A stretch of DNA of 64,000 nucleotides from Escherichia virus TH06. Made by a program: the position numbers and the translations under genes. The stretch lies in sequence record MT446386.1; one strand, 5' to 3'. This document shows positions 50,974 through 59,348 of the stretch, piece by piece. The notes under the pieces are model-generated. The model was not told the origin of the DNA and ran no database searches. It saw only the letters and a list, made by a program, of their open reading frames with translations. Numbering within the stretch: the stretch's first letter is position 1; every line of letters starts with the position of its first letter.

Positions 50974-51945
50974 ATGTCAATCTCCACAACGATCGTACCT
51001 CTTAATCTTCAACAGGATTTAGGGGAACAGAAGTTCTTAGGTCGTGGGTGCTTCGGTATTCACAACTACATGCAAGGCCAATGCGTAAATGATATTAATG
51101 GCGAAGTTATCACGGAAGAAGGGCGTTATAGACGCTTCAACCGTGATATCAACTTGCAATTGGAGATGTTGAATTACTGGACTCACTCTTTTCACGGTCA
51201 TGTTGCATCTGATATTGAAAAGAACTTGGTTGAAACAGCAGACATTATGAACTCCATGTCTTGCTATCGTGACGTATTTACGATCACTTCAGCGAATAGT
51301 GTTGCTGTCAACCTTCGTGAGCATCCAGCAGATCAGATCTTCACAGGACTTATGCTCTTTCGTAGTATTCTGGAAGGGCAATATCGTGGAATGGATTTCC
51401 TAGCAGAAGGAATTGAAGACAGGGAAGAGTGGCTGAAGCGTAAACGCATCGGCATCGCTCTAGTGTTAGCTGGGTTGGGTCGTGACTTCTTCGGTGGATG
51501 GTCTCAACGAGGAAGAGCCAATGGTAGTAGCGAGAGCACCTCTATTGTTATTAACAACTATATGTCAGCAGCAGCATTCCTTCCTTTGGTTGTAGACTCT
51601 GATGAATACACGAAGCAAGTATGGGTTCAAAACCCCTTCGGTGTTGGCGACAACGAGAATGGTTATGTTCGTAACCATAACCAAGATGCCTTACGAAGAT
51701 TTGCTCGTGCTAAAGATCAAGACCCGGACGAGTATGAAACAATGTCAGAGTGGTTAAAACTCTGGTCCAACTGTTATGGTCACAAACGTGAAGCAATAGA
51801 CGACAAGTTGGGAAACATTACAGTACAAAACTTTACAGCCCGACTGATTCAACGTACTGGACCAAGCTCTGGTCTTACCACTGAAGAAGTTGGTAACACA
51901 ATCTCATCTCTCTTTTCTGAACTAGTGGAGTATTACAATGACTAA
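50974..51945 (+). CDS. hypothetical protein (323 aa)
   Basis: Long ORF; no motif recognised. Confidence 0.45.
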   Translation: MSISTTIVPLNLQQDLGEQKFLGRGCFGIHNYMQGQCVNDINGEVITEEGRYRRFNRDINLQLEMLNYWTHSFHGHVASDIEKNLVETADIMNSMSCYRDVFTITSANSVAVNLREHPADQIFTGLMLFRSILEGQYRGMDFLAEGIEDREEWLKRKRIGIALVLAGLGRDFFGGWSQRGRANGSSESTSIVINNYMSAAAFLPLVVDSDEYTKQVWVQNPFGVGDNENGYVRNHNQDALRRFARAKDQDPDEYETMSEWLKLWSNCYGHKREAIDDKLGNITVQNFTARLIQRTGPSSGLTTEEVGNTISSLFSELVEYYND

Positions 51946-52744
51946 GCGCAAATTCCTTATCGGGTCGGACCCTGAAATGTTCGTTCGTACTAGCAATGGT
52001 ATCATCACTTCTGTAGCCGGTCTATTAGGCTGCTCTAAGGACGATAAGATCGCTCTGGCTAAGGATGTTCGTCTCCAAGAGGACAACGTACTGGCTGAGT
52101 TTGATATTGACCCACAGAGCGGTTTTGAAGCGTTTAACGATAACATGCAACGTGGTATCGATCTCACCAACAATGTCCTGAACAAACTGGACATGGAAAC
52201 AGCTCCGGGTGTTAGCTCTCACATCTTCACTGAAGAAGAGATGAAGACTTTCAATGAATCAGCGTTCATCTTCGGATGCACTCCTGATTTTAACGCTTTC
52301 ACTGGTCAGAAGAATCCATCCCCGACTTCTCAGAATAAAGGGCTTCGTACTGCCGGTGGTCACGTACATCTTGGCGTAGTTGGTGCTTTGGATATCACTT
52401 TGCAAACTCAGATGATGCTGGGTGTGCTGTGTGACTACTTCCTGTCACTCCCAGCAGTTATTATGGATAAAGATACTCGCCGTAAAGAACTGTACGGCAA
52501 AGCTTCTGCAATCCGTTATAAAGACTATGGTATTGAATACCGTTCACTGTCTAACTTCTGGATTAGTGATCGTGAAAACCGTAAGTTTGTTTACGATCAG
52601 GTTGACAAGGTTGTTCAGCAGTGTGATATGTCCACTCTGATGGCATTGCACTCTCGCCTTCCGATTGAGAAGCTTCATGAAATCATTAACGGCAACAACG
52701 TTAAAGAAGCGGACCAGCAGATCAAACTCCTTCAGGTAGCATAA
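51938..52744 (+). CDS. amidoligase-like (GCS2/YbdK-type carboxylate-amine ligase) candidate
   Basis: N-terminal FLIGSDPEMF and later TAGGHVHLG fit the GCS2 pattern (acidic residues, then a HxH segment). Confidence 0.35.
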   Translation: MTKRKFLIGSDPEMFVRTSNGIITSVAGLLGCSKDDKIALAKDVRLQEDNVLAEFDIDPQSGFEAFNDNMQRGIDLTNNVLNKLDMETAPGVSSHIFTEEEMKTFNESAFIFGCTPDFNAFTGQKNPSPTSQNKGLRTAGGHVHLGVVGALDITLQTQMMLGVLCDYFLSLPAVIMDKDTRRKELYGKASAIRYKDYGIEYRSLSNFWISDRENRKFVYDQVDKVVQQCDMSTLMALHSRLPIEKLHEIINGNNVKEADQQIKLLQVA

Positions 52745-52753
52745 GAGGTTATC

Positions 52754-53371
52754 GTGAGCTTAATAGCTGATTTTTCTCATTACTATAATGGTACATGGAT
52801 TGCTAAACGAGCAGGTAATATCAACCTTCCGTGTTTTGTGATTGGTGTTGAGCAGAGCGGTAACTTCCGCAGCGATGACTTCTCACATGAAGCAGAACAG
52901 GCTCTGTACTTTGTTGTAGAGCAGTGGTACAAGAACGAGCATGGGAATCTCCGAAACACTACGATGAATATTCCAGTGTTCGACCCAACCTTGATTCTCG
53001 AATCACCTGATGTTGGTTATCTGTTCCATAACGGTAACACTGTAAGCTGGACTCATATCAATCCTGTTCGTCAGAGAGCGAAGGGTTTGATGGGTAACAA
53101 GATTCGAAACGCTCCGGGGATTGGTCGTTCGATCTCTGGTGAAATGGTTTACAGTCTGTTCAATCCTGAATTTGATGGATTGGTTACTCGTTATATTTAC
53201 ATCAATCCTACAGATGGTAAAGTGCATTATAAAGGTGCACTGGTAGGTCAGGTAGATCTGGAAGCGCCTCGTGACTCTTACGGTCAACAACCGATGCGAC
53301 TTCTGGAACATTTTCATCACATCTCTGAAAACCTTAGCAATTATAATATTACGTTGGTGGATTCGTTATGA
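52754..53371 (+). CDS. hypothetical protein (205 aa)
   Basis: ORF. Confidence 0.45.
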   Translation: MSLIADFSHYYNGTWIAKRAGNINLPCFVIGVEQSGNFRSDDFSHEAEQALYFVVEQWYKNEHGNLRNTTMNIPVFDPTLILESPDVGYLFHNGNTVSWTHINPVRQRAKGLMGNKIRNAPGIGRSISGEMVYSLFNPEFDGLVTRYIYINPTDGKVHYKGALVGQVDLEAPRDSYGQQPMRLLEHFHHISENLSNYNITLVDSL

Positions 53372-54471
53372 CAACTGTAGCGCAAACTTTTGGATATCGA
53401 GAAGGTCGTTTAACTGAGGCGCATAGTTCAATTGCACTTCAGTGCGGTGTCGGTATTGAACTTGAACTCGAAGGTTCTGAACATATCGAAGCAGATATGT
53501 GGGATTGCACAGAGGATGGTTCCCTGCGTAACGGTTGTGAAATGGTATGTTCACGACCTTACAACGGACAGGAGTTGTTAGACGCTATCAACAACCTGAG
53601 TGAAGCAGTAGCTGAATCGCACGCCGAGGGGACTTGGCGTTGCTCTACTCACGTTCATATGGATATGAGGGATGCTGATAGTAATATCCTCAAGAAAACC
53701 ATTCTCGCTTGGACCTTCTATGAAAAGATGTTGTTCAAGTGTTCAGGCTACCATCGTTACCGTAGCAACTTCTGCCCTGCATTTGCAGTGGTACAAGCAC
53801 AGGTAATGAATGCCTCTGACGCATTTAACTACGATGGTGAAGAGTTCTTCAACCGTCTGGTTCGTTCATGGGATAAGTATACATCACTGAACCTTCTGCC
53901 ACTTGCCCAATACGGTTCGATTGAGTTCCGTATCAGCGAGCCTAAGTGGAAACGTGGTCAACTTCTCAATCTGGTTAACCGATTCTTGATGTTGAAGAAG
54001 CTGGCTTTAGATAACGCAGATATGAGCAACGATCAGTTTGTTGAGCATTTAAATACTGTACGATTCGCCCCAATGCTTCCTTATCTTCCTCTAGATTACA
54101 ATCTGGATGAATCTGATTTGCATTCAGGGTATTGTATGGCCCGTGATGTTTTGTATTGCCGTTCTCATGAAGTAGAACAGTCTGGTCGTATTCGTTTACG
54201 TAGAACTAACTCCAACGGAGATGTTCTTGTTGACTTACGTCATATGTCAGACTTCTACGGATTCCTTGGATATGTCCGAGGGAACGCTAACAGTTTGTAC
54301 CAAGAGATTCTGGTTATGCTTCGTACAGCAGACCTATCTCAAGTAAGACACGCTCCAGAACAGCGTATCCGTGCTATTTTTGACTTACTACGTGAGTCAG
54401 GTCACAGTGATAGCAATATCACAGGGTACATTCCAGACCATCTGGAAAATCAGTTAGAGCAAGCGCTGTAA
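53368..54471 (+). CDS. amidoligase-like (GCS2/YbdK-type) candidate
   Basis: GVGIELELEG and CSTHVHMDM. Confidence 0.4.
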   Translation: MTTVAQTFGYREGRLTEAHSSIALQCGVGIELELEGSEHIEADMWDCTEDGSLRNGCEMVCSRPYNGQELLDAINNLSEAVAESHAEGTWRCSTHVHMDMRDADSNILKKTILAWTFYEKMLFKCSGYHRYRSNFCPAFAVVQAQVMNASDAFNYDGEEFFNRLVRSWDKYTSLNLLPLAQYGSIEFRISEPKWKRGQLLNLVNRFLMLKKLALDNADMSNDQFVEHLNTVRFAPMLPYLPLDYNLDESDLHSGYCMARDVLYCRSHEVEQSGRIRLRRTNSNGDVLVDLRHMSDFYGFLGYVRGNANSLYQEILVMLRTADLSQVRHAPEQRIRAIFDLLRESGHSDSNITGYIPDHLENQLEQAL

Positions 54472-58664: not shown

Positions 58665-58717
58665 TCTGCTTTAGCCTCTTCGAAAGAGGAGGCTAGTTCG
58701 GATAAACTGGAGGTTTT

Positions 58718-58927
58718 ATGAAACATGAAAGATTAAGTAAAGCCATTGATTCTGTATGGGATGCTGGGTGTGTTATCTACCGAGAGCATCACTCATATGG
58801 GCAAACCAGAATATTGATTCTTAATCCCTTCTGTGAGCAGTTGGGGTTAGAAGTGTTTGTAACAGGAGCCACTGATCAGCAGTGTGCTTACATTGAAAAC
58901 ATCATGAAAGACTGGAAAGGTATTTAA
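58718..58927 (+). CDS. hypothetical small protein
   Basis: RBS GGAGG. Confidence 0.45.
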   Translation: MKHERLSKAIDSVWDAGCVIYREHHSYGQTRILILNPFCEQLGLEVFVTGATDQQCAYIENIMKDWKGI

Positions 58928-58928
58928 A

Positions 58929-59348
58929 ATGTCAGAAGTAATTTACGTAGCAACTTATGGTTCTCTTCGTCGTGGTCAAGCTAACTATTTAGTTAATGAT
59001 CGAGCTGGTGCTAAGTCAATTGGTGAAGGTTGGACTGAAGACAACTTTGATCTGTTCCGTTACGGTGGTTCCTACTTCCCGAGCATCTCTCTCGCACACA
59101 GCAATAACAATAAGCCTGTTCGTGTAGAAGTGTTTGCTACTGACAAAGCAGGTCTGGAAGGTCCGTATGACCGTCTGGAAGGTTACAATAAACGTAGCCC
59201 TGAAGACAGCTTCTATCAGCGTACTCAGATTGCCGTTAAGCTGGACTCAGGTGAAACTGTTATCGCTTGGATTTATCATATCGACGAAGAACAAGATGTT
59301 CTGGTTGAATCTGGCGACTGGTCAGAGTATCTGAAAAGTGAATCTTGA
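58929..59348 (+). CDS. gamma-glutamyl cyclotransferase (GGCT/AIG2)-like protein
   Basis: N-terminal YVATYGSLRRGQANY and downstream YDRLEGY resemble the GGCT fold signature. Confidence 0.45.
   Translation: MSEVIYVATYGSLRRGQANYLVNDRAGAKSIGEGWTEDNFDLFRYGGSYFPSISLAHSNNNKPVRVEVFATDKAGLEGPYDRLEGYNKRSPEDSFYQRTQIAVKLDSGETVIAWIYHIDEEQDVLVESGDWSEYLKSES

Follow-up and report, generated by a model that had tools for sequence, protein, structure and literature searches.

The phiEco32-type amidoligase module of Escherichia virus TH06: a conserved early phage operon with a possible role in gamma-glutamyl-based amide ligation

Introduction

In the biosynthesis of butirosin (BtrJ/BtrG) and ergothioneine (EgtA/EgtC), a ligase adds a transient gamma-glutamyl group that is later removed, in the first pathway by an enzyme of the GGCT fold (BtrG) and in the second by an amidohydrolase of the class II amidotransferase fold (EgtC). 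The pupylation enzymes PafA and Dop have the carboxylate-amine ligase fold, and here proteins are tagged via the gamma-carboxyl of a glutamate that is joined to lysine. A phage gene block with related enzyme types lies at positions 51938-59348 of a 64,000-nucleotide (nt) stretch of Escherichia virus TH06 (MT446386.1), the whole of which we refer to as the window. This block is the phiEco32-type amidoligase module, an early-transcribed and vertically conserved phage operon, for which we tentatively favour a pathway of amide ligation based on gamma-glutamyl groups, its target being an amine on a protein or another macromolecule.

The module is already known, being the type example of named Pfam families and having been predicted computationally in 2009, a prediction that later papers credit, in the passages that mention it, to Iyer, Abhiman, Burroughs and Aravind. 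The block in the window is the same module, with 96-99% identity to those of SU10, Bas91 and TH38 over its whole length and no difference in kind. An initial annotation of this DNA had proposed ATP-dependent amide or peptide bond formation together with gamma-glutamyl processing, and had described the combination as computationally predicted with no experimentally defined product or target. The protein families and catalytic residues set out below support the former, and a full-text literature search agrees with the latter, having returned annotations and speculation and no experimental product or target. New here are the addition of partner proteins and of DUF7195 to the module, the replacement of GGACT by Peptidase_C26, and a corrected start for the amidotransferase; the value of the finding lies in an unanswered, newly testable question and not in sequence novelty.

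Comparison with the described systems shows partial likeness in each case. The module shares with the gamma-glutamyl cycle (GshA, GshB, GGT, GGCT/ChaC) a carboxylate-amine ligase, an ATP-grasp ligase, an N-terminal nucleophile (Ntn) hydrolase and a cyclotransferase, but its Ntn enzyme is of the class II amidotransferase type and not GGT, it has two divergent ligases and not one, no GCS2 or GshA profile matches, and it includes extra proteins without an enzyme-family match. With pupylation it has carboxylate-amine ligase-type enzymes in common, and pupylation also includes a Gln/Glu deamidation step; however, no small protein resembling Pup and ending in Gln or Glu is conserved in the module. 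The ATP-grasp protein has its best sequence matches in the systems RimK–S6, MptN/CofF and LysX–LysW, with which it shares the Mg-binding E-x-N motif and the glycine-rich loop, but the scores fall far under the equivalog cut-offs, no LysW-like carrier with a conserved C-terminal Glu was found, and in Kuravirus the protein is extended by a further C-terminal domain. Unlike the butirosin and ergothioneine pathways, the module has no acyl carrier protein and no pyridoxal phosphate-dependent or other tailoring enzyme, and the likeness is one of logic and fold only.

The enzyme block and its distribution

The window comes from a Kuravirus (Gordonclarkvirinae), a prolate phiEco32/SU10-like podophage of E. 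coli. The plus-strand open reading frames (ORFs) named in the initial annotation are each present with unchanged coordinates, and five of the products are enzymes:

51938..52744, + strand: COOH-NH2 ligase type 2 (PF14395), predicted ATP-dependent carboxylate-amine ligase (Pfam; PHROG 3815)
53368..54471, + strand: Amidoligase_2 (PF12224), predicted ATP-dependent carboxylate-amine ligase (Pfam; PHROG 7469)
54551..56581, + strand: class II (Ntn) glutamine amidotransferase, 676 amino acids (aa), ATT start (GATase_6, catalytic residues)
57025..58227, + strand: RimK-like ATP-grasp ligase (about residues 1-270) followed by an acidic linker and a C-terminal domain of about 80 aa (phmmer, PHROG 2599)
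58929..59348, + strand: GGACT/AIG2-like gamma-glutamyl(amine) cyclotransferase, 139 aa (Pfam GGACT)

A megablast search of 50,697 phage records with 51938-59348 matched 98 records, nearly all of them Escherichia or Shigella phages, the best being TH38 (98.6% identity); over the full length, identity was 96.8% to Bas91 and 96.5% to SU10. A primase/helicase at least 80% identical to that of the window occurs in 97 records, against the 98 Gordonclarkvirinae-like records that match the block. The block takes up 7-9 kb of a 45-77 kb genome, and, with this presence among the Gordonclarkvirinae-like records, it is unlikely to be dispensable in nature. Directly downstream are genes for the primase/helicase, a polymerase exonuclease subunit, a nucleotidyltransferase and a dCTP deaminase. 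The authors of the SU10 study place coding sequences (CDS) 69-125 among the early genes, and the block falls inside that early unit; mass spectrometry of SU10 lysates detected the ATP-grasp, amidotransferase and YtfP-like proteins, as early gene products, and these three are therefore expressed.

With tblastn, the four core enzymes were located in nearly identical sets of phage records (306 for the PF14395 ligase, 301 for Amidoligase_2, 333 for the amidotransferase and 313 for the ATP-grasp protein) with a near-identical genus breakdown, and GGACT in 183. Syntenic modules are found in Kuravirus, Bruynoghevirus, Paundecimvirus, Citrovirus, Privateervirus, Lahexavirus, a Vibrio phage, a Rhizobium phage and a crAss-like Cellulophaga phage, and the recurrence of the same genes in nearly the same order in nine phage lineages is not a chance arrangement. 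In Kuravirus, Clew-1, Proteus phage P59 and Aeromonas phage LAh_6 the order begins with two unannotated proteins of ~270-400 aa, the COOH-NH2 ligase and a protein of ~200 aa, and continues with Amidoligase_2, the amidotransferase, DUF7195 and the ATP-grasp protein, followed by replication or nucleotide-supply genes. A GGACT-type gene is nearby in Kuravirus, Clew-1 and LAh_6, lying upstream of the block in the last of these. The gene order is permuted in Pseudomonas phage K4, Phriendly, Klebsiella phage VR7901 and Rhizobium phage RHph_N3_19, and in the crAss-like Cellulophaga phage phi14:2 the five enzymes stand in a row between primase and uracil-DNA glycosylase. The module sits among replication genes in most lineages examined.

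Roughly 300 of the 50,697 sequenced phage records (~0.6%) keep the block, candidate therapeutic phages among them, and its carriers extend from podophages of E. coli and Pseudomonas to a crAss-like phage. The BASEL phages Bas86-93 plate on E. coli K-12 and show unexplained restriction resistance, so that the role of the module there is now testable.

Some neighbours of the module were seen in single phages. RNA ligase genes lie a few kb upstream of it in P59 (RtcB) and LAh_6 (Rnl2). In LAh_6 (16009-18792), the ATP-grasp gene and one small ORF are followed by a ribose-phosphate pyrophosphokinase gene, and a nicotinate phosphoribosyltransferase-like gene lies ~0.7 kb further 3'.

The three predicted ligases

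Both carboxylate-amine ligase candidates pass the gathering scores of their Pfam families, 51938-52744 matching PF14395 (COOH-NH2_lig, 'Phage phiEco32-like') with 34 bits against 25 and 53368-54471 matching PF12224 (Amidoligase_2) with 33.6 bits against 22. In alignments of nine lineages, residues D11, E13, E54, H142, H144, E200 and R202 of the former and E31, E33, D50, S52, E58, H95, H97, E119, E186 and R188 of the latter are invariant. The wider superfamily is hinted at solely by patterns of acidic E/D clusters and the H-x-H and E-x-R motifs; alignment of the PF14395 and PF12224 families with hhalign brought only the H-x-H motif into register. The initial annotation had called the pair GCS2/YbdK-like, of which the assignment as carboxylate-amine ligases stands, but the label is too specific and the superfamily is the most that can be named: Pfam gave no match of either protein to GCS2/YbdK (PF04107) at E<=0.1, no sequence similarity to PafA/Dop was detected, and sequence and profile searches of the PDB found no solved relatives. 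A longer amidoligase orthologue of 515 aa contains no extra Pfam domain.

The ATP-grasp assignment of 57025-58227, also part of the initial annotation, is upheld by PHROG 2599, by phmmer matches in the PDB to the RimK-type alpha-L-glutamate ligases 7qys (E 6e-4) and 7qyr (1e-3), as well as to E. coli RimK and Ddl, and also by orthologues above the 21-bit Pfam cut-off for RimK, namely gp101 of P59 (32.9 bits) and LAh6_106 of LAh_6 (21.5 bits). On its own the window protein scores under threshold in Pfam (RimK 16 bits against a gathering score of 21; Dala_Dala_lig_C 17 bits), and its nearest NCBIfam families, MptN and rimK_fam, reach 32-33 bits against cut-offs of 143-350. The residues expected to bind nucleotide and Mg, namely the S128-G129-G131 loop, R159, K173, D229 and E241-x-N243, do not vary across six lineages, and E157 is likewise invariant. 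PHROG 20552, a family of its own, is matched by the C-terminal 82 aa, and a longer orthologue of 618 aa has no extra Pfam domain.

The ATP-grasp protein also resembles D-Ala-D-Ala ligases, and the ligase and glutaminase pair MurT/GatD amidates stem-peptide carboxylates of the cell wall, a likeness that would suit modification of peptidoglycan or another envelope component to block superinfection. A paper on an OM43 phage, in its passage on the subject, attributes to Iyer et al. (2009) the suggestion that phiEco32 modifies the cell wall against superinfection. We regard an envelope target as very unlikely: the proteins inspected have no signal peptide or membrane segment, except for a possible N-terminal extension in phi14:2 g040 (see below), and the hosts of phages carrying the module differ greatly in envelope chemistry.

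The glutamine amidotransferase and its ATT start

The description of 54551-56581 in the initial annotation as an Ntn class II amidotransferase of ~677 aa with a Cys-rich CxxC tail was borne out. The protein consists of an N-terminal glutaminase-type domain, a middle region without assignment and CxxC zinc-ribbon-like motifs. Its GATase_6 match (56 bits) covers residues 76-176, and in Pfam class II families cover the N-terminal ~200 residues alone. Across six lineages there is no variation at residues C2, R29, R86, T89, N111, G112 and D129 or at the CxxC pairs C440/C443 and C512/C515. R86, N111-G112 and D129 are the equivalents of the glutamine-binding and oxyanion residues R73, N98-G99 and D123 of GlmS, and the motifs GHSRHATKG, NAHPF, VHNGT and VDSE line up with both GlmS and PurF. 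The catalytic residues expected from the initial annotation, the N-terminal Cys here and the nucleotide ligands of the ATP-grasp protein, were thus looked for in alignments and found to be present and invariant. EgtC is among the weak NCBIfam matches. Past residue ~230 neither the window protein nor 45 homologues gave a Pfam or NCBIfam domain, and so no acceptor (synthase) domain of the kind found in GlmS, PurF, AsnB and GltS; the C-terminal ~450 aa contain no Pfam domain in any of 46 homologues, and an orthologue of 846 aa has no extra one. Repeats in the LAh_6 amidotransferase may, judged from sequence by eye, be S1/OB-like.

The start of this gene requires correction, and concerns the following features:

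54472..54550, + strand: intergenic region of 79 nt, with an 8-bp hairpin at ~54479-54499, a Shine-Dalgarno sequence AGGTGGA at 54537-54543 and an in-frame TAG
54537-54556 of the window, with ~135-150 of loci L008 and L009, ~3755-3775 of L011, ~3025-3045 of L010 and ~5650-5670 of L004: sites at which ATT or ATC precedes the Cys codon

The frame of 677 codons contains no ATG, GTG or TTG ahead of an internal TTG at 54890, and a mechanical ORF list gives just an ORF of 563 aa from that TTG; the 63.8 kDa reported for the amidotransferase in the SU10 paper corresponds to this truncated product. The full frame opens with ATT (54551) followed by TGT (Cys), two codons past the TAG (54545-54547) and 7 nt 3' of AGGTGGA, and ATT must be the initiator because the enzyme needs Cys as its first residue. 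The same CDS of 2031 nt is annotated in the SU10 and Bas91 records. ATT-TGT is kept in Suseptimavirus SU7 and in ECBP2, where the annotated internal ATG start drops the catalytic Cys. The equivalent sequence is ATT-TGC in VR7901 and RHph_N3_19 and ATT-ATC-TGT in K4, and the annotated N-terminus is truncated in the records of all three. In four separate lineages of phage, the codon right in front of the catalytic Cys is ATT (ATC in K4); Clew-1, Phriendly, P59 and LAh_6 start with ATG-TGT. That so poor an initiation codon recurs suggests selection for amidotransferase synthesis that is low or sensitive to initiation factor 3. The corrected start matters to anyone cloning the enzyme, as many database entries are without the catalytic cysteine.

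The hairpin 3' of the Amidoligase_2 stop codon (54479-54499, + strand) is GC-rich, and one GenBank record annotates a terminator within the stretch matching 54471-54700 of the window, which over its 230 nt is 100% identical to phiEco32. A regulatory RNA structure at the ATT start was considered and rejected, the predicted fold being not significantly more stable than shuffled sequences (z -1.69). In phi14:2 the annotated amidotransferase g040 has a hydrophobic N-terminal extension of 31 residues (9212-9305) before its Cys-Gly motif, perhaps a propeptide or membrane anchor or else the result of a mis-called start.

Gamma-glutamyl cleavage

The last gene of the block, already described as GGCT/AIG2-like in the initial annotation, matches Pfam GGACT with 63.8 bits (gathering score 22.8), and both the YGSL motif (Y10-G11-S-L13) and the catalytic E84 are conserved in three lineages, in agreement with that description; matches to UPF0131/AIG2 structures were weak. 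Its SU10 counterpart, gp78, has been seen by proteomics.

Several other lineages have a different protein for this step. K4 and Phriendly, in which no GGACT is annotated, encode a Peptidase_C26 family protein instead (61.9 and 53.6 bits; E 1e-16 and 3e-14), RHph_N3_19 has an annotated C26 protein, and VR7901 a protein with the GxCxG nucleophile motif of class I amidotransferases. Peptidase_C26 and GGACT have unrelated folds and both cut gamma-glutamyl amide bonds, the canonical substrate of GGACT being epsilon-(gamma-glutamyl)-lysine. This looks like the replacement of one enzyme by an unrelated one with the same job, as if the cleavage step were obligatory. That two unrelated folds with the same bond specificity occupy the same position argues for a gamma-glutamyl-linked intermediate, and is the strongest internal clue to one.

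Partner proteins and small ORFs

Interspersed with and preceding the enzyme genes are the following:

49767..50963, + strand: phage-only protein of 398 aa, upstream member of the module (PHROG 13063)
50974..51945, + strand: phage-only protein of 323 aa, directly 5' of and overlapping the first ligase gene (PHROG 13102)
52754..53371, + strand: partner protein 'X', 205 aa, GTG start (PHROG 4877)
56584..56817, + strand: DUF7195 (PF23825), 77 aa, between the amidotransferase and ATP-grasp genes (Pfam, 61.9 bits)
56798..57022, + strand: ORF of 74 aa overlapping DUF7195 by 20 nt, a lineage-restricted accessory (PHROG 13464 only)
58234..58927, + strand: three small ORFs (82, 61 and 69 aa) outside the conserved core, without a Pfam match

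The two large proteins that precede the ligases had been flagged in the initial annotation, and several other lineages do have unannotated proteins of similar size just 5' of the COOH-NH2 ligase. The 323-aa protein has no family match in Pfam or NCBIfam and only 19 clusters at E<=1e-3 among 1.84 billion representative proteins; in small-database phmmer searches it is weakly linked to its positional counterparts LAh6_112 and gp108 of P59. That the 398-aa and 323-aa proteins are paralogues was hinted at by phmmer links and by Foldseek hits to both counterparts, but was not established (hhalign probability 0.2%).

Protein X is conserved in eight of nine lineages, and its stop codon overlaps the Amidoligase_2 start (ATGA, 53368-53371). 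It has no enzyme-like fold and is probably non-enzymatic, with SH3-like, small beta-barrels and a conserved basic loop; the fold matches are generic and weak. A 'gp86' of 23.3 kDa in the SU10 proteomics table fits by mass the 205-aa protein SU10_087, and not the amidoligase SU10_086.

The small ORFs had been suggested to be substrates or carriers, which we could not substantiate, as none has a conserved C-terminal Glu or Gln and DUF7195 is limited, among the lineages examined, to four, Kuravirus included (68.2 bits in Clew-1, with alignable proteins in P59 and LAh_6). A carrier of the LysW or Pup type was rejected because DUF7195, the 74-aa ORF and protein X each have a C-terminus that varies between lineages, and DUF7195 was rejected as a universal component, matching 0 of 9 small ORFs from the K4, RHph_N3_19 and VR7901 modules. 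Its strand-helix-helix pattern recalls ribbon-helix-helix proteins, and a profile search of the PDB was empty. The 74-aa ORF has no Pfam match; P59 has an ORF of 77 aa in a similar position. A 'FNDYFE' motif in the 74-aa ORF resembles the C-terminal 'FEDYFE' of the Clew-1 DUF7195 protein. None of the other lineages examined has, in the same place, ORFs equivalent to the three at 58234-58927, and in Clew-1 an AIG2-like gene follows the ATP-grasp gene directly on its 3' side.

The beta-barrels and basic loop of protein X, a design common in RNA-binding and ribosomal proteins, bring to mind a target in translation, for example RimK-style glutamylation of S6 or another host C-terminus, or an amino-acid adduct on tRNA, that would redirect or protect translation. 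The ATP-grasp protein is closest to RimK, and RNA ligases upstream of the module (P59, LAh_6) and a CCA-adding-type nucleotidyltransferase downstream of it in Kuravirus would fit the same picture. Such a target nevertheless appears unlikely to us, since no profile identifies an RNA-binding domain and the fold matches are generic and weak, the nearby RNA-repair genes are not conserved with the module, and no RNA modification is known to use these ligase families.

A gamma-glutamyl pathway and its likely acceptor

The enzyme chemistry is clear in outline, comprising three ATP-dependent amide ligations, one glutamine-dependent amidation (or hydrolysis of a gamma-glutamyl amide) and one gamma-glutamyl cleavage. 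On a macromolecular amine, one ligase would attach glutamate through its gamma-carboxyl and the others would lengthen the adduct by further ATP-dependent amide bonds; for the ATP-grasp enzyme, by analogy with RimK and MptN, the probable addition is an alpha-linked amino acid. Glutamine-derived ammonia from the amidotransferase would serve to amidate a carboxylate, or this enzyme might alternatively trim a gamma-glutamyl amide. As a last step GGACT, or Peptidase_C26 in other lineages, would remove or release the gamma-glutamyl unit. The macromolecule bearing the acceptor may be recruited by the SH3-like protein X of 205 aa and the zinc-ribbon tail of the amidotransferase. We infer every chemical step, the order of the steps and the nature of the acceptor from family membership. 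A macromolecular acceptor is favoured over free nitrogen metabolism because the partner proteins belong to no enzyme family, the amidotransferase has a tail of a binding type and the ATP-grasp protein is RimK-like, its closest characterised relatives being alpha-L-glutamate ligases whose targets are a protein C-terminus in the case of RimK and a cofactor tail in that of MptN.

Several considerations weigh against this proposal. Nobody has observed a substrate, product or adduct, the chemistry being predicted from the protein families, and the putative GS/GCS-type fold of both ligases comes solely from Pfam naming and motif patterns. The five enzyme families are all best known from small-molecule metabolism, and GGACT and C26 need a free alpha-amine on the gamma-glutamyl unit, which a free metabolite would offer equally. 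Neither a conserved C-terminal Glu/Gln tag nor a LysW-like carrier was found in the module. Finally, phi14:2 has the five enzymes with no separate X or 300-aa proteins detectable, so that the chemistry may be able to proceed without the partners.

In the main rival, a free small molecule is made and recycled, such as a glutathione-like gamma-glutamyl peptide or amide, in auxiliary nitrogen, amino-acid or thiol metabolism during infection. This fits the enzyme families equally well, the set paralleling GshA, GshB, GGT and GGCT by fold and including enzymes (GGACT, Peptidase_C26) that act on gamma-glutamyl units with a free alpha-amine. Since the phages carrying the module infect very different hosts, ranging from Pseudomonadota to Bacteroidota, the substrate would have to be universal. 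A paper on Phage-ZRK32 reads the homologous genes as nitrogen-metabolism genes, a claim that has no enzyme assays behind it. We see a free metabolite as possible but somewhat doubtful, given the ~450 non-catalytic residues of the amidotransferase, with their zinc-ribbon-like motifs and no synthase domain, the conserved non-enzyme-like proteins integral to the operon, and the fact that E. coli and Pseudomonas already produce glutathione.

DNA modification and restriction resistance

The BASEL study found Gordonclarkvirinae to be broadly and unexpectedly resistant to type I, II and III restriction, which modification of DNA or nucleotides with an amide-linked amino-acid, gamma-glutamyl or peptidyl group would explain. 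Target sites are plentiful in the window (34 EcoRV, 8 EcoRI, 9 EcoKI and 100 EcoP1I), and site avoidance is thus not the reason for the resistance; numbers of EcoRV, EcoKI and EcoP1I sites over the 64 kb are at or above expectation, with EcoRI at 8 against 19.8 expected. The position of the module among replication genes in most lineages is also consistent with a DNA target, and amidoligase and amidotransferase genes recognised by Pfam co-occur with thymidine-hypermodification genes in viromes. A precedent exists in CmoA/CmoX/CmoY of Synechococcus phage S-B43, in which ATP-dependent amide ligation on a carboxylated base of DNA has been proven (CmoX/CmoY).

That system differs from the module in that CmoY is asparagine-synthetase-type, outside the families found here, and has been proposed to work by carboxyl adenylation, and Kuravirus annotations list no CmoA, CmoX or methyltransferase. 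An entry enzyme is missing: the thymidylate synthase is ThyX (Thy1, 149 bits), the components of a 5-hydroxymethyldeoxyuridine route (dUMP hydroxymethylase, TET/JBP, 5-HMUDK, aGPT-Pplase) are absent from the two annotated Bas91 stretches examined, and in Pfam the module proteins match no families besides ligase, amidotransferase, GGACT and DUF7195. A DNA role also conflicts with data on phage tf, a carrier of the same module, whose DNA was cut with RsaI, HpaI, EcoRV and SmaI for clone libraries and digested with HaeIII. Kuravirus also has other candidates for the resistance, a gene annotated 'anti-restriction nuclease' and the pair of dCTP deaminase and nucleotidyltransferase, which the BASEL authors speculate to be a sign of DNA modification. 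A DNA target is accordingly in our view distinctly unlikely; if true, it would represent a new kind of nucleic-acid modification pathway and the missing cause of restriction resistance in Gordonclarkvirinae. Scanning of eight module proteins and the downstream nucleotidyltransferase with the PADLOC defence and counter-defence profiles gave 0 matches.

As to other short motifs in the window, Dcm sites (CCWGG) are strongly avoided, numbering 6 against 74.5 expected, and PstI sites 0 against 10.7, and CAGCAG is ~4x over-represented (91 against 21).

Neighbouring features

A promoter scan performed at chance level (24 matches against 27.8 expected). A terminator-like hairpin with a T-run lies at 49194-49211 (+ strand), just 5' of the gene run that leads into the block, and a single tRNA-Arg gene (anticodon TCT) is found at 45208-45283 (+ strand). 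Downstream of the block, a protein of 472 aa (61854-63272, + strand) gives a weak match, under threshold at 20.3 bits, to the head domain of poly(A) polymerases and CCA-adding enzymes; the dCTP deaminase gene (63282-63815, + strand; 118 bits) adjoins it.

Two observations concern Bas91 genes outside the window. The annotated 'phosphatase' at 31797-32294 is a Macro domain protein (41.8 bits), and the 'GTP-binding domain' protein at 30741-31133 gives a sub-threshold match to the SLOG family (YAcAr). Proteins of the Macro and SLOG types are generally associated with conflict systems that involve ADP-ribose/NAD.

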